Shown piece by piece: positions 7,525 to 54,420 of a DNA stretch of 64,000 nt. Below the pieces are notes generated by a model. That model made no database searches. It saw only the letters and a program-made list of their open reading frames with translations, and was not told where the DNA came from. This DNA comes from a virus: IMG/VR virus record IMGVR_UViG_3300015371_000005, positions 1 to 64,000 of that record; one strand, 5' to 3'. Position 1 is the stretch's first letter, and each line of letters begins with the position of its first letter. A program made the position numbers and the translations under genes.

Positions 7525-8002
7525 TATTGGCTGCCTCGATTCCAGTACGCCGCAAATATTTGATTGACTTGTCAAGTAGGAAGATGTTATCATCGAATGC
7601 TGCTAATCCACGATTACATGGTGCACAGAGCAAGCCTCTCACGTGTCCCCACTTATGACAGTGATCGACTTGAAGATGCCCACCGCAGTTGTCAGCAATC
7701 TCAGAACCGCAGATTGCGCATCCACCTTTTTGCTTCTCCAGTAGATCATTGTAATCGTCAATCGTAATGTCATATTTCTTCTTGAACTCATATCCTCTAA
7801 AGGTTTGCTTGAACTCAGGATTGGCACGTCTATCTCGCGCATAGGCAGCACCATATTGGCGCCGACATCTGCGACAGTAGGGATCTAGCCCATCATTCTT
7901 TGCCTGATTAGGGCCGAAGTATTTGACAAGTTTATTGCGTTGGCATCTGCTGCAACGCTTATGCAGCAAGGGTTTTTCATCGAAGAAGGCGACTGCTCTC
8001 AT
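7502..8002 (-). CDS. recombination endonuclease VII-like protein
   Basis: GGCAICGSE...LQVDHCHKWGHVRGLLCAPCNRGLAAF matches the Endonuclease_7 signature. The N-terminus carries CxxC pairs. Confidence 0.85.
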   Translation of the reverse strand: MRAVAFFDEKPLLHKRCSRCQRNKLVKYFGPNQAKNDGLDPYCRRCRRQYGAAYARDRRANPEFKQTFRGYEFKKKYDITIDDYNDLLEKQKGGCAICGSEIADNCGGHLQVDHCHKWGHVRGLLCAPCNRGLAAFDDNIFLLDKSIKYLRRTGIEAANNASCSSF

Positions 8003-8072
8003 GCGGATCGAGTATACTGGCCGCCCAGGCAGGCCACAGTGGCTCGTCTGTATGGTTCCCTAAGGAGGGGGC

Positions 8073-8408
8073 GTGGCGGATGATCATGAAAACCTAAAGA
8101 AGCACCTCAAGCCTAGCTTGAGCACGCTGCCCGTGCACCAGCAGAAGGCACAAGGAGCGGCACTTGATGAGCAGATATCGAGGCCAATGGCGGCCCTCGG
8201 ATCATTGCTCAGTCCCGAGCCCTACATTCGCTCGGCAATCAAGGTGATGTACAAAGTTGAAGTAACCGGCGGACATATCAAGGACTTCGATCGATGCGTA
8301 GGGATGTTCTTGGATCTTGGAAATTCGCTTGTCGAGTATGGCGAGCTGAGAGACTATGACATCTCGGATGTCAAGGAGTTCTTGAAAAACAGAGAGATAA
8401 CAGGATGA
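8073..8408 (+). CDS. hypothetical protein (first gene of an opposite-strand cassette)
   Basis: GTG start with SD AAGGAGGGGG. The stop overlaps the next ATG (ATGA). Confidence 0.6.
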   Translation: MADDHENLKKHLKPSLSTLPVHQQKAQGAALDEQISRPMAALGSLLSPEPYIRSAIKVMYKVEVTGGHIKDFDRCVGMFLDLGNSLVEYGELRDYDISDVKEFLKNREITG

Positions 8409-8842
8409 AAAGGTATCAACTCATCGATCAGTTCATTGAGGACTCCGAACTAGAAATCGATGACATCTTCGATAGCTCGACGGTCCAGAGATGGTTTGAC
8501 AGGCATGGCGTCGAGACGGCTGTCGGAGATGCGCTGGCGGCGCACAGACGTTCCACAGAACGAAAGTACACAACCGAACGCATTGGCATGGGGCCATTCA
8601 GCTACTACCGTGTGGTAGACGACGGGCTCTTGGCGGACTCCGACGCAGCAAGCCGGATGATCACGCAGATGGCCATGGAAACGGTTGACAGATGGATCAA
8701 CGAGCTTGACAATCGCATCAAGCGCGTGATCGTCACTCCGGAAGGAGAACTAGCCCGCTCACGAGCTGAGAACGGCATCTTGTTGATGGCTAATCAGCTT
8801 GACATGGATTTGAAGGCGATCTCGCAGGAGATGGAGAGTTAG
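8405..8842 (+). CDS. hypothetical protein (second gene of the cassette)
   Basis: 145-aa ORF translationally coupled to the previous gene and followed by a hairpin. Confidence 0.65.
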   Translation: MKRYQLIDQFIEDSELEIDDIFDSSTVQRWFDRHGVETAVGDALAAHRRSTERKYTTERIGMGPFSYYRVVDDGLLADSDAASRMITQMAMETVDRWINELDNRIKRVIVTPEGELARSRAENGILLMANQLDMDLKAISQEMES

Positions 8843-8859
8843 AGAGGGAGCGGCAAAGC

Positions 8860-8882
8860 GGGGGCGGACAAGTTCCGTCCCC
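8860..8882. terminator. hairpin between convergent genes
   Basis: 9-bp stem GGGGGCGGA/TCCGTCCCC (one G-U pair) with loop CAAGT, between the convergent genes 8405-8842 (+) and 8891-9454 (-). Confidence 0.5.
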
Positions 8883-8890
8883 AGCCGCTT

Positions 8891-9454
8891 TCATGTCCCA
8901 ATCCAGTTGATCGACGTTCTGAGCATGCGAGCGTCGGCGTAGAGCGTGTCCATGAGCCGGCCGTCGTGCAGCGCCGCGCTCGGGTGGTACATCGGGAACA
9001 GCCGTGGACTGCCGGTCAAGAGCATGCCATGTGCTGCTGTGATCGTGATGTGCGGACAGAAGAACTTCAGCGCATGGCTGCCGAGCGGAACGACCAAGCG
9101 TGGTGCAATGACCTTGAGCTGGGCGTGCAGCCAGTGCGAGTGGTGCTTGATCTCGACCGGCGTGGGATCGCGGTTGTCAGGTGGCCGAGCCTTGACGACG
9201 TTGGTGATGTAAACCTCAGGACGGCTCATTCCGGCTTCGACAAGCAGCTCGTCAAGCAAGTTACCGGCTCTCCCGACGAATGGGCGGCCGGTTTTCTCCT
9301 CGGTGGCGCCGGGTGCCTCGCCTACAAACACCACCTCGGCCTCAGAGTTCCCTTCTCCGGGCACGAACCGGGTCGCCCCTTGACACAACCCATGTGAGCA
9401 GCCCGAGTGGCGCAGAATCGATTCTGTGATCTCATCAAGCGTCACAGCGTCCAC
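8891..9454 (-). CDS. uracil-DNA glycosylase, family 4
   Basis: Family motifs [18 protein letters not shown] and HPSAAL. The start is uncertain (GTG 9454, GTG 9445 as a GTGA overlap, or ATG 9529). Confidence 0.8.
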
Positions 9455-37317: not shown

Positions 37318-37628
37318 TACTTCCTCCTTACATTTGTTACTTCAATTGACGGCGCTTTCATCCAGCGCCGCTCCTTGTCCGCCAAAGCAATCAGTTCCAT
37401 GCCTGCCGCCGTGGCAGTGTATCCATGCTTGACCTTTTCCACAAGACCCAGATTGGCCAAGCCCTTCAACGTGGTTACAGCTTGCATCTTAGAGTGAGGG
37501 AGGTCACTCCATTTGATCTTGTTACAGCATGCTTCTGGCGCTGTGTAAGGATTACCTTGCTTCGTTCGGGCACAGACATAACGCAGAACCTTGCCGGCAC
37601 GCGGCGTTAGATCCTGCGGCTCAGTCAC
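37317..37628 (-). CDS. winged-helix (MarR-like) DNA-binding protein
   Basis: AVTTLKGLANLGLVEKVKHGYTATAAG is a wing-like segment. GTGA overlap with the upstream gene. Confidence 0.5.
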   Translation of the reverse strand: MTEPQDLTPRAGKVLRYVCARTKQGNPYTAPEACCNKIKWSDLPHSKMQAVTTLKGLANLGLVEKVKHGYTATAAGMELIALADKERRWMKAPSIEVTNVRRK

Positions 37629-43153: not shown

Positions 43154-43480
43154 TCAACCACCGCTCGGCGCTCTCACTAAACTCAGTTCGTCGGAACCTA
43201 ATTGCTGAAAGCAGTTTCGCTCGTAAAATGCAAGCAGCTCAGCATTCCTCAATCCTGTTCCATCACTCTCAACCTTCAACAATAGGGTTGCACGCTCGCG
43301 ATCGGCGTGATCACACACCACCTTGAGCAAGCGCGAAGCAGAACCTCTTCCCCTAGAACCAGGTTGAACCCACACAGAGGTCACCAACCAGCAGTTGGCG
43401 CGACCAAGATCAACCACATCACCGAGCCCCATCAGCGTGATATTCGATCTATCAACATGATTCCAGTAAGAATTCTTCAT
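43154..43480 (-). CDS. short GNAT-family acetyltransferase-like protein
   Basis: The segment VQPGSRGRGSASRLL resembles the acetyl-CoA motif A. It is only 108 aa and is the first gene of the leftward operon. Confidence 0.55.
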   Translation of the reverse strand: MKNSYWNHVDRSNITLMGLGDVVDLGRANCWLVTSVWVQPGSRGRGSASRLLKVVCDHADRERATLLLKVESDGTGLRNAELLAFYERNCFQQLGSDELSLVRAPSGG

Positions 43481-43486
43481 TCTGTG

Positions 43487-43522
43487 AGTCTATCAGCGCC
43501 CTCAGAACGCCCTCCCGGAGGG
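43487..43522 (-). promoter_or_regulatory. extended -10 TGATAGACT (6 nt from the ATG) plus 13-bp palindrome CCCTCC-C-GGAGGG
   Basis: The minus strand reads TGATAGACT-cacaga-ATG. The palindrome at 43510-43522 sits where a -35 or operator would be. Confidence 0.35.
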
Positions 43523-43616
43523 TACTGGAAGGGGAAATCACGGCAAATCAATGCGATTTTTAGTCAATTTCTCCGCATTTTCCTTCGGAATCGTGCCGAC
43601 TTCCCTGCAATTTAGG

Positions 43617-43679
43617 CGATTTCAAGCCGAATCATGCACGTTTCAAGCAGATTCTTACACGTTTCACGGCATTTCAATC
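43617..43679. repeat. iteron-like direct repeats CG(A)TTTCA at about 20-nt spacing
   Basis: Copies are CGATTTCAAGC (43617), CGTTTCAAGC (43639), CGTTTCACGG (43659) and GCATTTCAATC (43669). More degenerate copies extend to about 43730. Confidence 0.6.
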
Positions 43680-43759
43680 ACATTTTTGTGTCATTCTGGT
43701 TCGTTTCGACGTGTTTCTACGAGGCCCTCCTCCAATCGCTCCCTCCTGAGTCCTCGCGC

Positions 43760-44771
43760 AACCTGATTACATACAGTAATCAGTAGTGCCTACCTGATTT
43801 CCTATGTCATGCAAGTTTCGTGGCGCGTAAGAGACGTACTGGTTTCACCTGAGGCACACTGGTTTACATCCTTGGCCCAGGCCCCCCGATCAACCGGATT
43901 TCGGCGCATGGGTGCCCCCGATTGGCGGGAACTTGATTGACATGAAACCAAATTGATAACAAACCCGATTGTCGTGCGTTGGGCGTTTCAAAATGAGCCG
44001 ATCTGAGGCTCTACTCTGTAATCAGGTTTCATGGAATTTGCAGGGTAATCAGATTCAGGGGTACTAGGACCCGGGTCGCGCGTAAATATCATTTGTTACA
44101 AGCTTCGCCAGCGGGGGCGCGTGCGGGGGAGGGTCTCGTCCTAGGACGCAATCTTGTTTCAGACAATTCCATTGCAGATAGTCTAGTAATTCGATTGTTC
44201 CGTGGTGGTCCCTTCTAGCTAAGGAGGGGTGGAAGGGGGCGGAAGGGGCAGAGGGAGCGGAGGGGGCGGGATCGGCTGGGCAGGGGAGACTCTGAGGGAG
44301 TCCCTACGGGAAGCGGACGGATCGGTGGGGACTGACGAGAGGTACTGGCCTAGCTGGCGCCTGGACGGACGAGGGACTGACCTACCGGCGCCTGGTCACT
44401 GTTCTCCGCGCCAGCCGAACCCGATTGACTGGAAACTAGGTTGTCAGGGGCCATTTGTCTATGAAACCTGATTGTAGAGCGGGGGTAGTTGGGGCTCTCG
44501 TCTCCGTAGTAACTACTGATCTTCCCTCAGGGTGAACTACTGAGATTCATCTAGTAGATTGATCAACCAGATTCTATGGAATGCCTGCAAATGAGCATGT
44601 TTTGGGCCGATTTGGCTTGCAATCAAATAGACCGTGGAAACCCGATTGATACGCCCGATTCAGGTCCTAGGTAAATCAGGTTGAATGAGCGGCAATGTGC
44701 CAAGCAGGGTGACAAATAGTTCGGATGAAACCCCTGCAAATCAGCACATTCGGTGAGTTGTAAATCAGGTT
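43760..44771. repeat. array of at least 10 exact AACCNGATT motifs in both orientations, plus degenerate copies
   Basis: Plus-strand copies start at 43760, 43892, 43962, 44418, 44465, 44565 and 44639. Inverted AATCAGGTT copies start at 44020, 44674 and 44763. About one copy per strand would be expected in the whole window. Confidence 0.8.
44221..44300 (+). repeat. polypurine G-tract cluster (G-quadruplex-capable)
   Basis: At least 8 runs of 3 or more G within 80 nt (AAGGAGGGGTGGAAGGGGGCGGAAGGGGCAGAGGGAGCGGAGGGGGCGGG...). Confidence 0.7.
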
Positions 44772-44789
44772 TGCGGGAAACTACGGATA

Positions 44790-45690
44790 TCGCTGCGGGG
44801 GCCGGGTGCCGTTCAGTGGAGTGCAGCACCGAGGACCACCCGGCAGGCGAAGCGGGTGGGGCGGGAGCATCGCCACGGGAGCCTCACCCATGCCAGCCCT
44901 GCGGCTGGCGCAAGCGAACGGGGGTTGCCCCGGGGCGCGTTGTCACCCTTGCGACGGCGCGCTGGACATACCCGCAAGGGGCGTGCATTCCACCGAACGG
45001 ATGCTCGCGGGACTGGCAAGTGGCGCGAAGGAAGCGTTGCCTGCGCGGTGGGAAACCGGGTTTACTCCCGTTCGGTCTCACGGCGCAGGACCGGGCACAT
45101 ACACTGGCCCGGGAAAGCGACTGATGTGCGGTCACCCAACAGTGCGAATGCATGCATACGCAAGTACGCTGCAAATGGAAACTGCCAACTAGTTTCCCCG
45201 ATCCTGTAGTTCCCGCCGAACGGCCGAGTGTACGCCGGTAAGGCGCGGAAGGGGAGGGTGAGGCGAATGGAAACAAGCGTCAAGTACGCACCAGGGACCT
45301 ATGCACGTATCACCCGGCCACGGTGGGTGGGCGTATGAATGGCGGTCAGTCAAGCGGGTTACCCCCGTGCGGTGAAACCGAACGTGAGCAAGCGTACGCA
45401 ACGCTTGGAAGGATGGCGCAGTAAGCGCAGCGGATGCCCGCTCGTACGGGGGCTAGGAAACCGGGCCGACGCCGGACTGAAATAAGGTTGCGAAGTAACG
45501 CGGTGTACCGTCCAGCGAGGGTTTCCCGCTGTCGATGGGTGACGTGTGAACGCTGTGAGTAAACGGTGAGCACATCCTGCCATGAGTGAGGACAAGCGAG
45601 CGTACGCAATGATCCGGGCAAGTCTCGCGCTAAGAACGCGAGTGTCAATGTGGCTTCAAAACCCGCTTGCCCATTGCCTGACAACACCAC
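44790..45690 (+). ncRNA. candidate large structured non-coding RNA or structured leader (class unknown)
   Basis: No credible ORF. More than 12 hand-paired hairpins with 5-8-bp stems. Recurrent GAAA and RGUAA loops appear only on the plus strand. GTACGC recurs 5 times. The region is co-oriented with the downstream genes. Confidence 0.45.
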
Positions 45691-45706
45691 CCGAAAGGAC
45701 GGCATC

Positions 45707-45847
45707 ATGGCCGCCACCGCACAGAAGACCCCTGCCAAGACCAAGCAGGTTGAGCCGCCCGAGAACGGGCCGGCATACGACGAGATGACCAAGTACGGCA
45801 CCCACGCCTGGGACGAAGCGTTCCTCAACGTCGGGCGCTACAGCTAG
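45707..45847 (+). CDS. hypothetical small protein (46 aa)
   Basis: The ATG is preceded by CTGACAACACCACCC and GAAAGGA. Confidence 0.4.
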   Translation: MAATAQKTPAKTKQVEPPENGPAYDEMTKYGTHAWDEAFLNVGRYS

Positions 45848-45978
45848 CCCCTACGGTCCAGCACCCTGCCCCTTAGAAGCGCGACCACCATTGCGCACAA
45901 CGGCCTGCCGTGAGAACGGCCCGGGTTCGAGATCCCGGAGGGGGCACTAGACCCTGCCACCATACGAAAGGCACCACC

Positions 45979-46098
45979 ATGCTCGCCGTCGTCTTGATTG
46001 TCACGCTGTACCCGCTGTTCCTGTCCATCTTCGTCGGCATTGACAAGCTGACCGGCTGGACGATCGCCGATGCCTTCGGAAAGGATGCCCCGCGATGA
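45979..46098 (+). CDS. hypothetical small membrane protein (39 aa)
   Basis: Hydrophobic segment MLAVVLIVTLYPLFLSIFVGI. The stop overlaps the next ATG. Confidence 0.45.
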   Translation: MLAVVLIVTLYPLFLSIFVGIDKLTGWTIADAFGKDAPR

Positions 46099-46280
46099 CG
46101 TACATGGATGCCCTCACGGGCGCGACTCGAACCAACGCCCCTGTCGTCAAGGTTGCCACCATCGCCGACCGTAGGTCCGGGCAGCGCGTGGCAGCGGCGA
46201 TGGAACGTCGCGACGACGACTCACGAGACTTCCGCACCGTCCGCGCGGTGATGAGCCAGCGCTACGGAGTCTGCGGCTGA
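46095..46280 (+). CDS. hypothetical protein (61 aa)
   Basis: ATGA overlap with the upstream ORF. Confidence 0.5.
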   Translation: MTYMDALTGATRTNAPVVKVATIADRRSGQRVAAAMERRDDDSRDFRTVRAVMSQRYGVCG

Positions 46281-47610: not shown

Positions 47611-47982
47611 ATGGTCCTGCTTCACAATGACTTCACCGTAGGGCCGTCTGGCGCCCTTCGCAAGGAACGCTCACACAACGGTGGAGCGCGTCCCAACGCC
47701 TACCAGCGACGCTCGAACAAGCGCTATCTGCTGTCGCCCGAGGCTGGCTTCGGTGGCAACGGCTCCGTAGTCCCCTGCGCTCACTGTGGCAAGGAACTTG
47801 ACTTTGCCGCTGTCGAAGCCGATCGCGCGAAGCCGGGCAGCAAGGGTGGCGGTTACCAGCAATGGAACCTCGTTCCCTCCTGCTCGCCGTGCAACAAGCG
47901 TCGCGGTGACAAGTCACTGTGGAGCTTCAATCCTTCGCTCGCGCGTCGCATGGCGCGGCGCAGAAAGGCTACAAATGTCTGA
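47611..47982 (+). CDS. HNH endonuclease
   Basis: CAHCG...GGYQQWNLVPSCSPCNKRRGDK matches an HNH/zinc pattern. Confidence 0.7.
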   Translation: MVLLHNDFTVGPSGALRKERSHNGGARPNAYQRRSNKRYLLSPEAGFGGNGSVVPCAHCGKELDFAAVEADRAKPGSKGGGYQQWNLVPSCSPCNKRRGDKSLWSFNPSLARRMARRRKATNV

Positions 47983-51382: not shown

Positions 51383-51754
51383 ATGAAGTACACCAAGAAG
51401 ATTGCAGCATTGCTCGCAATCGCAATGCTTGGCGCTCTCGCTTTCACAGCCGCAGCGCAAGCTTCAACGCCAGGACAGCGTAACGCTCTGAGCAAGGCTC
51501 AGACGTACCTGCGTGTCTTGCCCTTCTCGAAGGAGGGGCTGTACGACCAGCTAAGGTACGAGAAGTTCTCTCGGTCGAATGCCCGTTGGGCCGTCAATCA
51601 CGTTCACGCGAACTGGTACGCACAGGCTGTCAGGAAGGCCAGGCAGTACCTGAAGGTAATGTCGTTCTCTCGTCAGGGACTCATCGAACAGTTGGAGTAC
51701 GACAAGTTCACACACTCGCAAGCCGTGTACGGAGTTAGCAAGGTGTACCACTGA
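51383..51754 (+). CDS. Ltp-family (host cell surface-exposed lipoprotein-like) protein, putative superinfection exclusion
   Basis: Signal peptide plus two repeats: NALSKAQTYLRVLPFSKEGLYDQLRYEKFSRSNARWAV and AVRKARQYLKVMSFSRQGLIEQLEYDKFTHSQAVYGV. Both match the Ltp repeat pattern. No lipobox Cys is present. Confidence 0.75.
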   Translation: MKYTKKIAALLAIAMLGALAFTAAAQASTPGQRNALSKAQTYLRVLPFSKEGLYDQLRYEKFSRSNARWAVNHVHANWYAQAVRKARQYLKVMSFSRQGLIEQLEYDKFTHSQAVYGVSKVYH

Positions 51755-53174: not shown

Positions 53175-53374
53175 TGGACCCTATCGCTAACCTGATTGAG
53201 CAGCGTGAGATAGCCAAGCGCATACTTGACGAGCCCCTCATGAGCGATGATGCTGCAAGCAGACTGGCAGAGCTTGTCATCGCGCTTGACGAATGGCGCT
53301 TGATGGGCGGCTGGGACCCCTACGACAAGGCCGGAAGCTTAGTCATCAACGAACCTTACGCAGGAACAGACTGA
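53174..53374 (+). CDS. hypothetical protein
   Basis: 66 aa. TGATG overlap with the upstream gene. Confidence 0.6.
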   Translation: MDPIANLIEQREIAKRILDEPLMSDDAASRLAELVIALDEWRLMGGWDPYDKAGSLVINEPYAGTD

Positions 53375-53394
53375 CAACACCACCAGGAGGCATC

Positions 53395-54420
53395 ATGTAT
53401 AGCTACGAATGGGCGGTTGACAAGCTCAACCATGCTCGCAGCAAGGATGCGGGCAAGCCGGTCCAGAACAACACTCGCCTCTATGAGCGCGAGGATGGCA
53501 TCGCTGTCAAGTTCCATGCCGTCGATGTCGTCACCATCCATCCCGACGGGACCTACACCCTGCGCAACGGCGGCTGGAACACGGTCACCACGCTTGAGCG
53601 AATCCGTGATTTCTCACCTGCCAAGCTGGTTTCCGTCAATCAGGATAGGGGGGGCCGGGGCGATTGGTACGTTCAGCTTGAGCCCAATCCCGACGATCCC
53701 AAGCCCGAGTACGTGAACCGTCCCATCCCGGCGCCGTTCACCGAGCCCAATCCCGGTCCCAAGCCCGAGAACCCGTGGCTGGGCGACTGGTGGGAGCGCA
53801 ATCGGCGTTACCAGCAGTGCATGGATTTGCTTGACACCTACGGCTCGCTGGAAGGCTGGAAGGCCGAGCGCAAGATCCAGTACCGCGCTCGCCGCGACTA
53901 CCTCAAGGCCGAGCGCGAATGGTGGACTCGCAACTACATTCCGTTCTACGACGGTATCAAGGTTGACAGCGAAGGCTATGCGCCGCGCTTGCGTGCCGAT
54001 GGCCCGAGCCCGGCCAAGCTGCGCCGGTACGAGGCTGCCGTCAAGCAGATGAAGGCTCGCATCGACAAGTATGCCAAGGAGTACATCGACGCGCTCCGAG
54101 AGGGTATGCCAATGCCAGGTTCGGGTGATTGCTGGTTCTGCGCGATGACGGCCGAGAACGGCCAGCCACTAGGCGACGCTACCGGCAACCACGATCACCT
54201 CATCAACCATATGGAGGATGACTACTACGTCCCGAGCCTCGCTGTCAATGCGATTCGTGAGGCTGGCTACAGTGACACAGGCATCTACATCTTCCTGAAC
54301 ATAAAGCCCGAGCAGGGAACGATGGGAGGCCATGCCAATCACTTCGACAACAGGATTGTAAAGAAGAGCATTGTGTCCTATATGCGCAAGCGGCTCCTCC
54401 CACAAGCTCCGACAGAGTAA
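53395..54420 (+). CDS. hypothetical protein
   Basis: 341 aa, preceded by CTGACAACACCACC-AGGAGG. Cys/His segment GSGDCWFCAM...GNHDHLINHMEDDYY. Confidence 0.65.
   Translation: MYSYEWAVDKLNHARSKDAGKPVQNNTRLYEREDGIAVKFHAVDVVTIHPDGTYTLRNGGWNTVTTLERIRDFSPAKLVSVNQDRGGRGDWYVQLEPNPDDPKPEYVNRPIPAPFTEPNPGPKPENPWLGDWWERNRRYQQCMDLLDTYGSLEGWKAERKIQYRARRDYLKAEREWWTRNYIPFYDGIKVDSEGYAPRLRADGPSPAKLRRYEAAVKQMKARIDKYAKEYIDALREGMPMPGSGDCWFCAMTAENGQPLGDATGNHDHLINHMEDDYYVPSLAVNAIREAGYSDTGIYIFLNIKPEQGTMGGHANHFDNRIVKKSIVSYMRKRLLPQAPTE

Follow-up and report, generated by a model that had tools for sequence, protein, structure and literature searches.

We propose, with a probability of about 0.5, that positions 44790-45690 of the phage DNA analysed here represent a lineage-specific structured 5' leader or non-coding RNA of the early operon. 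The genome is that of a novel, uncultivated soil siphophage of ~112 kb, and the window referred to throughout is the whole stretch of 64,000 nucleotides under analysis. This segment is non-coding, exceeds chance in perfect hairpins and in two short motifs, and occupies a syntenic position at which related phages carry structured RNAs. A large plus-strand phage non-coding RNA, as put forward in the first-pass annotation of this DNA, is thus plausible in kind and supported by synteny, whereas the resemblance to GOLLD and ROOL RNAs that came with it is unsupported.

The gene-free gap and its hairpin-dense right end

The feature of ~0.9 kb singled out in the first-pass annotation is real, yet it is only part, namely the GC-rich right end, of a larger gene-free gap flanked by divergent gene blocks. 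The final gene of the leftward block encodes a GNAT protein (43154-43480, minus strand), and on the other side, as had been claimed, the segment lies directly upstream of the first rightward gene and on the same strand. The elements of this locus are the following:

43481-45706, no strand assigned: gene-free gap of 2.2 kb, from the ORF list and the GC-frame plot
43760-44771, both orientations: array of 11 AAYCNGRTT copies, stopping 19 nt before the segment
44576-44597 and 44725-44746, plus strand: two copies of the 22-nt repeat ATGRAAnSCCTGCAAATSAGCA
44790-45690, plus strand: candidate structured 5' leader or non-coding RNA of the early operon, non-coding, 63% GC, purine-rich and hairpin-dense
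45707-45847, plus strand: first rightward gene (gene 1), 46 aa, with GAAAGGA preceding its start
45883-45945, plus strand: CCACCAUUG hairpin and T-arm-like hairpin after gene 1, no tRNA called

The base counts of the segment (G315 C255 A193 T138) show an excess of G over C and of A over T, matching the coding strand of the rightward block. The interval from the segment to gene 1 yielded neither a sigma-70-like promoter nor a terminator, and no promoter, transcription start or 3' end is definable for the candidate RNA. An exact look-up of the gene 1 product returned no record, and the early proteins scanned gave HNH and Ltp-like matches only.

All 13 hairpins previously paired by hand in the segment are present at their positions, including those at 44919-44932, 44981-45008, 45041-45088, 45091-45112, 45429-45442 and 45513-45531. 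Individual structures and motifs of the segment are, all on the plus strand:

44836-44859, plus strand: perfect 7-bp hairpin, CCACCCG/CGGGTGG, loop of 10 nt
44892-44909, plus strand: perfect 7-bp hairpin, GCCAGCC-ctgc-GGCTGGC
44946-44980, plus strand: 8-bp stem, CCCTTGCG/CGCAAGGG, enclosing a 19-nt loop
45164-45607, plus strand: span of five GTACGC copies (45164, 45230, 45284, 45394 and 45602)
45177-45197, plus strand: perfect 7-bp hairpin, GGAAACT-gccaact-AGTTTCC
45233-45245, plus strand: first RGUAA-loop hairpin, CGCC-GGUAA-GGCG
45389-45407, plus strand: perfect 7-bp hairpin, CAAGCGT-acgca-ACGCTTG, which includes one copy of GCGTACGC
45416-45428, plus strand: second RGUAA-loop hairpin, GCGC-AGUAA-GCGC
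45487-45504, plus strand: third RGUAA-loop hairpin, GUUGCG-AAGUAA-CGCGGU, with 3 Watson-Crick and 3 wobble pairs
45551-45568, plus strand: fourth RGUAA-loop hairpin, CGCUGU-GAGUAA-ACGGUG
45624-45642, plus strand: 6-bp hairpin, CTCGCG-ctaagaa-CGCGAG

Counting perfect Watson-Crick stems with loops of 3-10 nt against dinucleotide shuffles, the segment holds 4 stems of at least 7 bp, where 0.5-0.6 ± 0.7-0.8 are found in shuffled sequence (P 0.01 or less), and 6 of at least 6 bp, compared with 2.0-2.1 (P 0.010-0.013); the excess is not significant for stems of at least 5 bp (10 vs 7.8). Its number of 7-bp hairpins is the joint-highest among 141 windows of 900 nt. Elsewhere in the analysed DNA, a second hairpin-rich stretch at ~7650-8900 holds plus-strand ORFs.

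The five copies reported for the hexamer GTACGC were confirmed, against an expectation of 0.39 under a first-order Markov model (P<0.0005), with 21 copies in total in the 64 kb; two of the five sit within a 15-nt repeat, AGCRAGCGTACGCAA (45387 and 45595). The heptamers GAAACCG and CCGAACG are also enriched in the segment, with 3 copies each. The second motif excess is that of RGTAA, whose four occurrences (45237, 45420, 45494 and 45558) all fall, as had been noted, in the loops of small hairpins. Such loops number 4 on the plus strand and 1 on the minus strand, and the plus-strand count is 0 in seven control regions. The argument for a plus-strand transcript had been built on these loops and the purine excess, which stand, and on GAAA tetranucleotides, which do not. 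Since GNRA-capped hairpins are nearly as frequent on one strand as on the other (5 plus vs 4 minus), the case for the strand is left with the RGUAA loops and the purine excess.

Structured RNAs at the same locus in related phages

The protein encoded at 53293-54420 has 98 homologues, many of them from contigs measuring 105-120 kb. No protein similarity to T5 was found; for the helicase, the matches are to other phages, with ~33% identity. A gap of ~0.8-2.2 kb between the leftward block and the rightward early genes is present in every relative with enough upstream DNA recovered (L005, L006, L009, L028, L034 and L035), together with L060, a contig covering only the rightward side, on which 1,220 nt devoid of genes precede the first rightward gene. 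The alignable sequences for the segment itself are only contigs 99.9% identical to it, from the JGI samples 3300015372 and 3300015373, and structural conservation was hence assessed in these positional counterparts, the only sequences in which it was tested, where covariation was found and neither codon-like conservation nor an intact ORF was.

In one lineage, that of L005 and L006, ~600 nt of the right part of the gap with ~70% identity were aligned and folded by RNAalifold, with column-shuffled alignments as controls. The consensus structure contains 156 pairs, 49 of them compensatory, compared with 22.0 ± 3.9 (maximum 30) in shuffled alignments, and its plus-strand energy is -170.6 vs -101.4 ± 6.9 (z -10). 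The minus strand is weaker, with an energy of -135.7 and 36 compensatory pairs, and the plus strand is thereby favoured, an advantage that comes from G-U pairs. In a second lineage, L028 and L060 (76% identical) show 19 compensatory pairs in the right part of the gap, where shuffling gives 9.5 ± 2.8 (maximum 15), whereas the left part, which serves as an internal negative control, shows 4 vs 6.7; here the covariation does not distinguish the strands. The pair formed by L009 and L028 shows 26 compensatory pairs vs 16.8 ± 3.3. Rfam holds no match to any of these RNAs. Those of L005 and L006 lack the excess of perfect hairpins; in L005, it is the left part of the gap that shows it.

These covariation-supported RNAs have ordinary single-sequence folding energies (z -0.57 and +0.46), which makes the weak z of the window segment uninformative rather than evidence against structure. 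Compared with shuffled controls (20 shuffles each), the folding energy of the whole segment is not beyond chance, with z -1.86 for the plus strand and -2.61 for the minus strand; local windows of 200 nt range from -2.5 to +0.3, none of them standing out, and the best long-range inverted repeat scores 11 vs 9.8 ± 0.9, so that no significant long-range helix emerges.

The RNAs of the relatives resemble the window segment in position, since they sit in the right part of the gap, directly ahead of the early genes and in the orientation of these, as well as in similar length, non-coding character, ordinary folding z and absence from Rfam. They share no detectable sequence or model similarity with it, nor do the L005/L006 and the L009/L028/L060 versions with each other. 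Searches of the window gap by blastn, nhmmer and three covariance models derived from the relatives' RNAs returned nothing, with nhmmer giving E>1 against the L005/L006 RNA and no match against the L009/L028/L060 RNA. The models R1 and R3, from the two best-supported domains of the L005/L006 RNA, recover L005 and L006 only, and R2, from the conserved 3' domain of the L009/L028/L060 RNA, recovers its own three sequences only; with filters off, R1 reaches at most 7.5 bits and R2 at most 5.5 bits in the window gap. Continuity with these RNAs would then be one of position only, and the occupants of the locus may be unrelated.

Global, local and E-INS-i MAFFT alignments of the window with its relatives were unconvincing. 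Several 10-mers that the window has in common with L009 (among them GGCTAGGAAA) were rejected as collinear blocks of homology, as ~3 are expected by chance at these lengths and neither L028 nor L060, both closer to L009, conserves the blocks. Of the words shared with L009, only two are significant, the 15-mer CGCCACGGGAGCCTC and, lying outside the segment, the 16-mer TGCCTGCAAATGAGCA. Because CGCCACGGGAGCCTC lies inside a perfect hairpin in L009 and in no such hairpin in the window, it appears to be a sequence motif and not a shared structure.

Wider searches did not extend this set. GenBank phage DNA gave no match to 43400-46000, protein and DNA-pattern scans of IMG/VR found nothing, and an IMG/VR scan with the alignment of the homologues of the 53293-54420 protein returned distant phages only, with dissimilar gaps. 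A DNA pattern from the L005/L006 RNA had no match in JGI metagenomes, and the 18 metagenome loci obtained there by a scan with an HNH alignment were judged unrelated, being devoid of any motif of the family. The protein scan of GTDB genomes found nothing, and two matches of a conserved-motif pattern on bacterial chromosomes were rejected as chance.

Alternatives to an RNA leader

The main rival is a regulatory or terminal region acting at the DNA level, that is, a cis element for regulation, replication, packaging or the genome end whose palindromes and repeats (GTACGC, GAAACCG, CCGAACG) are bound by proteins; we regard it as unlikely, though to be taken seriously. The hairpins above chance are perfect palindromes, which a function of the DNA would explain equally well, GCGTACGC is self-complementary, and the folding statistics show no plus-strand preference, with the minus strand folding slightly better by z. 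The four perfect 7-bp hairpins are, however, all of different sequence, which agrees better with the folding of a single strand than with repeated binding of one protein to the DNA. The segment also adjoins the AAYCNGRTT array and a repeated CCTGCAAATSAGCA element. The motif AAYCNGRTT occurs 25 times in the 64-kb window, where 2.5 copies are expected, and the gap contains 12 of these, the array accounting for 11 and the other being at 45054; the gaps of the relatives hold at most one copy each. The array is operator- or iteron-like and specific to the window phage. The core of the 22-nt repeat, CTGCAAATGAGCA, is also found in the gaps of L009 and L005. These repeat arrays nevertheless belong to the left part of the gap, and not to the segment.

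A precedent for such a region exists in phage T5, where an untranslated region of 1.2-1.7 kb with repeats and palindromes holds the injection stop signal; its sequence and order are strongly conserved among T5-like phages, and DnaA boxes are arranged along it in an ordered series (bioRxiv 10.1101/866236). Both regions are non-coding over at least 1 kb, contain repeats, along with inverted repeats as well as palindromes, and lie near the first-expressed genes. A physical genome end within the gap is further hinted at by contig ends in the relatives: two contigs from independent assemblies (L029 and L031) match L028 without any difference from position 2692, the point at which each contig stops, and the L007 contig begins inside the RNA region. 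Contrary to T5, the window gap has no DnaA boxes, the single TTWTNCACA match in the 64 kb being at 37435. Whereas the T5 repeats are conserved beyond the flanking ORFs, the window segment has no blastn or nhmmer similarity to any relative. The same part of the gap evolves in the relatives by compensatory changes, a signature of RNA, with the plus-strand advantage in L005 and L006.

Clearly more doubtful is a functionless GC-rich spacer, made for example of decayed early genes or a former RNA gene, in which hairpins and repeats would be by-products of composition and local duplication. It agrees with a folding energy inside the range of the shuffles, with the lack of significant long-range pairing, with the failure to find homologues beyond near-identical contigs, and with the highly mosaic early regions of these phages. 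The GAAA richness previously pointed out is likewise within chance (7 vs 5.0 expected, P 0.22). However, phage genomes are compact, yet the gap persists in every relative with upstream DNA recovered; perfect hairpins, GTACGC and RGUAA loops each exceed chance significantly on their own; decayed genes might retain a trace of codon periodicity, which is absent here; and structure is kept by compensatory change at the same position in the relatives.

A missed protein gene, whether among the overlapping ORFs, which span 117-130 codons, or at 45278-45349 in the ORF of 23 codons, is very improbable: even though open stretches reach 139 codons and that micro-ORF has a plausible ribosome-binding site (GGAGG, 9 nt upstream), overlap of ORFs in several frames is what GC-rich non-coding DNA is expected to show, the GC-frame plot is flat, with a codon-phase GC spread of 0.01-0.11 across 43300-45500 vs 0.12-0.32 in the flanking genes, the overlapping ORFs have nothing beyond noise in Pfam at E up to 1, the JGI annotation calls zero genes within the gap on the contigs L001 and L002, a search of 1.84 billion representative proteins gave one ORF a single weak match (E 6e-7, 29% identity, seven matched stretches), which we read as low-complexity and not as a real homologue, and two alignments of the counterparts in relatives lack 3-nt periodicity (p 0.58 and 0.60) and contain frame-breaking indels (4 of 8 and 8 of 9). 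The earlier description of the segment as non-coding is thereby upheld, and that of its ORFs as SD-less is nearly true, the micro-ORF being the exception.

Proposed role, known systems and significance

As a structured leader or non-coding RNA, the segment would make up the structured and untranslated 5' portion of the early transcript that runs rightward, either as a leader of ~0.9 kb or as an RNA processed out of that transcript. Transcription would begin inside, or at the border of, the operator-rich left part of the gap, whose last AAYCNGRTT ends at 44771, and would read through the segment into gene 1 (45707), so that segment and early genes would form one unit on the plus strand. The RNA is predicted to fold mainly as a chain of different local hairpins, among which the four with RGUAA loops may serve as repeated docking sites for a protein. 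It may influence the expression of early genes, by affecting transcript stability, antitermination or processing, or by serving as a scaffold or decoy RNA. The segment would then be the window phage's own occupant of the locus that carries conserved structured RNAs in its relatives.

Large structured phage RNAs such as GOLLD and ROOL are few, and these two typically have tRNA genes beside them in the DNA of phages or prophages. The segment shares with GOLLD (RF01998) and ROOL (RF03087) a size class of ~0.6-0.9 kb, a phage location, non-coding character and many local hairpins, and relatives of the window phage carry covariation-supported RNAs of the same size class beside tRNA-like elements. 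However, the Rfam 15 cmscan check gave 0 matches at the gathering score over the whole window, and at E up to 10 it gave, over 43400-46200, four unrelated weak matches, each with E of at least 1. The segment thus matches neither of the two models at E up to 10, nor any covariance model for OLE, HEARO, RNase P, tmRNA, group I/II introns or riboswitches, and it has no adjacent tRNA genes. It differs, moreover, in its fixed position at the start of the early operon, with divergent gene blocks to either side, which is not known as a feature of these RNAs.

The tRNA-like elements reported nearby come down to one T-arm-like hairpin, CCGGG-UUCGAGAU-CCCGG at 45921-45938, as ARAGORN calls neither tRNA nor tmRNA genes, be it in the 64-kb window or in 8 related loci. 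The whole element (45883-45945) is the counterpart of the hairpin and GGTTCGAnTCC elements located between early genes of the relatives, and one such hairpin and T-arm element lies at 468-515 of L003.

Cis-acting RNA elements of early leaders that modify RNA polymerase are exemplified by the lambdoid nut sites, with their boxB hairpins, and by the put RNAs of HK022. A possible likeness to boxB would lie in small hairpins of similar size with purine-rich pentaloops in a candidate early leader, as GGUAA and AGUAA on 4-bp G+C stems; this form, with a 4-bp stem and a 5-nt loop, is that of 2 of the 4 RGUAA-loop hairpins. Contrary to boxB, the loops are not GAAAA or GACAA, and four copies lie within 340 nt where boxB has one per operon.

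The position of the locus makes it interpretable, as this is the candidate first rightward-transcribed DNA, between an operator-rich region and the early genes. What the window itself contributes depends on the segment being transcribed and folded; if it is a DNA-level element only, it would be an ordinary, though elaborate, phage regulatory region. More tentatively than for the segment alone, we consider it possible that a family of uncultivated soil siphophages of ~105-120 kb keeps a dedicated locus at the head of the early operon with structured RNAs of 0.6-0.9 kb that differ between lineages, the segment being one of them, and that T-arm elements punctuate their early mRNAs. If so, these RNAs would constitute a novel group of large phage RNAs whose role in the genome is fixed, mutually dissimilar by detectable sequence and outside Rfam, the tRNA-like hairpin and T-arm elements could serve as processing signals, and the fast evolution would suggest an arms-race function, such as that of a decoy or anti-defence RNA. 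In two related lineages, RNAs with strong comparative support occupy this locus and are covered by no database family, and the turnover of such RNAs can be rapid enough for their counterparts to escape both sequence searches and covariance models. The locus thus offers a testable handle on the role of such RNAs early in infection.

The gap and its surroundings

The window comes from a novel tailed phage and codes for a tape-measure-like protein of 2,324 aa that carries a tail-lysozyme domain, as well as for a primase and three helicases, one of them DnaB-like; no GenBank phage matches it at the DNA level. Its leftward genes run from 43480 and its rightward genes from 45707. In the 2,226-nt gap between them, no gene is called by the JGI annotation of two soil contigs (L001 and L002) that are 99.9% identical to the window. 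The candidate segment, 44790-45690, makes up the right 40% of this gap and is GC-rich (63%); the other 60%, to its left, is richer in AT and resembles a control region of the operator or iteron type.

Features of the gap in the window
43760-44771 (~1 kb): array of 11 copies of AAYCNGRTT in both orientations, with extended forms such as AAACCCGATTG and TAATCAGGTT
44224-44276: G-rich 9-nt tandem repeat of about 5 GGAAGGGGC-like units, in the left part
44576-44597 and 44725-44746: two copies of a 22-nt repeat, ATGRAAnSCCTGCAAATSAGCA, core CCTGCAAATSAGCA
44790-45690 (+): hairpin-dense candidate segment

AAYCNGRTT occurs 25 times in the window against 2.5 expected, with only 13 copies in the 62 kb outside the gap, and was not found in the gaps of related phages; the array probably represents operators or iterons peculiar to this phage. 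The 22-nt repeat could be a promoter or regulator site, and its core CTGCAAATGAGCA, kept in two related loci (L009 1060-1075 and L005 8677-8689), is among the very few words common to the otherwise unalignable gaps of the three phages. The left part of the gap in these loci also carries comparable G-rich tracts (L009 763-800, L005 7825-7880). All four copies of the 8-mer CTGCAAAT in the window lie inside the gap.

The early block to the right encodes an HNH endonuclease (47611-47982), a gene kept near the gap in L008, L009, L028 and L060, and an Ltp-type surface lipoprotein (51383-51754; PF07553, E 2e-30), a superinfection-exclusion family of Gram-positive phages. The two are a possible clue to the host.

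Hairpins, motifs and known RNA families

The hairpins, GTACGC sites and RGTAA sites listed by the first-pass annotation are all in place, and its observation is accurate, only partly beyond chance. That the segment is non-coding holds: the codon-phase GC difference is at most 0.11 across 43300-45500 vs 0.12-0.32 in neighbouring genes, Pfam has no family for the overlapping ORFs, and a comparison of one of these ORFs with 1.84 billion representative proteins brought up just one weak match (E 6e-7, seven matched stretches), read as low-complexity. A 23-codon ORF (METSVKYAPGTYARITRPRWVGV) at 45278-45349 has GGAGG 9 nt upstream and no periodicity.

The segment has 4 perfect hairpins with a stem of 7 bp or more, against 0.5-0.6 in dinucleotide shuffles (P 0.01 or less), a count equalled but not exceeded elsewhere among 141 windows of 900 nt. 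The recurrence of GTACGC likewise exceeds chance (5 vs 0.39 expected), and so do the RGUAA-loop hairpins, with four of four RGTAA sites in loops and none on the plus strand of seven controls. GAAA is no commoner than chance would give (7 vs 5.0 expected), nor is the folding energy better than in shuffles (z -1.86 on the plus strand, -2.61 on the minus). Local-window folding (z -2.5 to +0.3), the best long-range inverted repeat and the GNRA-capped hairpins, which are present on both strands, are not above chance. Four perfect 7-bp hairpins occur in just one further 900-nt stretch, at ~7650-8900, which has low GC (0.49) and a local flip of both skews; since its two plus-strand ORFs (8073-8408 and 8405-8842) lie within the leftward block, it probably represents a small island of inverted genes and not a second non-coding region.

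Rfam 15 at gathering score matched no family in the whole window and, at E up to 10, gave only four chance-level matches in 43400-46200, while ARAGORN found no tRNA or tmRNA in the window. GOLLD, ROOL, OLE, HEARO, RNase P, tmRNA and introns are thereby ruled out. Of the likeness to GOLLD and ROOL that had been proposed, family membership thus falls; a large structured phage RNA at 44790-45690 stays plausible by synteny, unproven for this copy.

A two-hairpin element recurs between early genes and right after the gap RNA of relatives: a short hairpin of the type CCACCAUUG or CACCCUACGGGUG, then a T-arm-like one, which reads CCGGG-UUCGAGAU-CCCGG in the window and GCGGG-UUCGAUU-CCCGC in relatives. 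Neither ARAGORN nor Rfam calls these as tRNA; they may act in processing or stabilisation as tRNA-like elements.

Hairpin plus T-arm-like elements
Window: 45883-45945
L003: 468-515
L004: 126-156 and 640-680
L006: 7190-7235
L035: 3922-3940

Counterpart gaps in related phages

For the protein encoded at 53293-54420 there are 98 homologues, many of which lie on 105-120-kb contigs (the contig of the window measures 112,325 bp); they define a soil-phage family, whose early regions are mosaic and share with the window only this protein and its immediate upstream neighbourhood. By walking from that protein and from small early proteins, the equivalent gap was recovered in six further lineages, and that of the L008 locus partially, all with a divergent architecture like the window's. 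No relative's gap resembles the segment by blastn or nhmmer.

Gap lengths in related loci
L005: 2,240 nt
L006/L007: 809 nt
L009: 1,504 nt
L028-L033 and L060: about 1.2-1.4 kb
L034: 1,020 nt
L035: 937 nt or less

L005 and L006 are about 70% identical over a discrete block of some 600 nt, for which RNAalifold gives, on the plus strand, 156 pairs, 49 of them changed on both sides, at -170.6 kcal/mol, against 22.0 ± 3.9 compensatory pairs (max 30) and -101.4 ± 6.9 kcal/mol (z -10) in sixty column shuffles, a lenient null applied throughout to two or three sequences per comparison. The minus-strand fold scores less well (-135.7 kcal/mol, 125 pairs, 36 compensatory), and one-sided changes preserve 12 pairs via G-U on the plus strand vs 6 on the minus; the plus strand is the most likely one for this RNA. 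Across the whole gap, L028 and L060 share 76% identity, with 19 compensatory pairs in the right-hand 700 nt vs 9.5 ± 2.8 (max 15) expected; the left-hand 500 nt, which serves as the method's own negative control, has 4 vs 6.7. L009/L028 gives 26 vs 16.8 ± 3.3.

Codon-like conservation, the coding signature named by the first-pass annotation, was not seen in these counterparts, whose mismatches lack 3-nt periodicity (p 0.58 and 0.60). Of the internal indels, 4 of 8 and 8 of 9 are frame-breaking, and in one L028 stretch the gene callers are at odds, with a 164-aa plus-strand ORF vs a 201-aa minus-strand one. Taken with the compensatory excess and the lack of any Rfam match to the relatives' gap RNA regions, this argues that the part of the gap matching the segment in position encodes an RNA of conserved structure in two or more related lineages. 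These covariation-supported RNAs are without the window's excess of perfect hairpins, and their single-sequence folding z is -0.57 and +0.46, so the weak z-score of the window is not counted against the segment.

Two independent assemblies, L029 and L031, end at exactly L028 position 2692, 86 nt past the last leftward gene, and the 111-kb contig L007 begins inside the L006 structured region (about L006 6635); such coinciding ends may mark a physical genome end or a repeat boundary. L006 6636-8015 and L007 6-1388, two contigs of one sample, are 100% identical over the RNA and the first two early genes. Past this stretch their neighbours differ, one contig having ParA, PLD-like and sigma-70 region-2 genes; the identical stretch stems either from a recent module exchange or from a chimeric assembly.

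Readings of the segment

The link between the segment and the relatives' RNAs is position alone. Covariance models of the L005/L006 domains (R1, R3) and of L009/L028/L060 (R2) each recover their own sequences only, the window gap scoring at most 7.5 bits with filters off, and the two versions do not detect each other by nhmmer or covariance models. Two words shared by the window and L009 are unlikely by chance: TGCCTGCAAATGAGCA, upstream of the segment and also present in L005, and CGCCACGGGAGCCTC, at window 44871.

We give a probability of about one half to the segment being the 5' portion, untranslated and structured, of the early transcript that runs rightward, this phage's own version of a fast-turnover RNA locus. 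Counted in its favour are hairpins that all differ in sequence, the RGUAA loop common to four of them, and the absence of a sigma-70-like promoter between the segment and gene 1 (45707-45847, +). The main rival, a DNA-level element similar in kind to the untranslated repeat region of T5, which holds the injection stop signal, would account for the perfect palindromes, the enriched short motifs and the coinciding contig ends within relatives' gaps; we hold it unlikely, however, given the missing DnaA boxes in the gap, the lack of sequence conservation among relatives and their RNA-type evolution. Ranked below both are a functionless spacer, which is less probable again, and a missed gene, which is very improbable.

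As a structured RNA, the segment would be the phage's own occupant of a rapidly turning-over locus, perhaps offering a platform to a protein that affects early transcription or the stability of RNA, or else being a processed stand-alone RNA. Firmer than the result for this copy is that for the family: soil phages of ~110 kb carry, at a fixed locus, structured RNAs outside Rfam.
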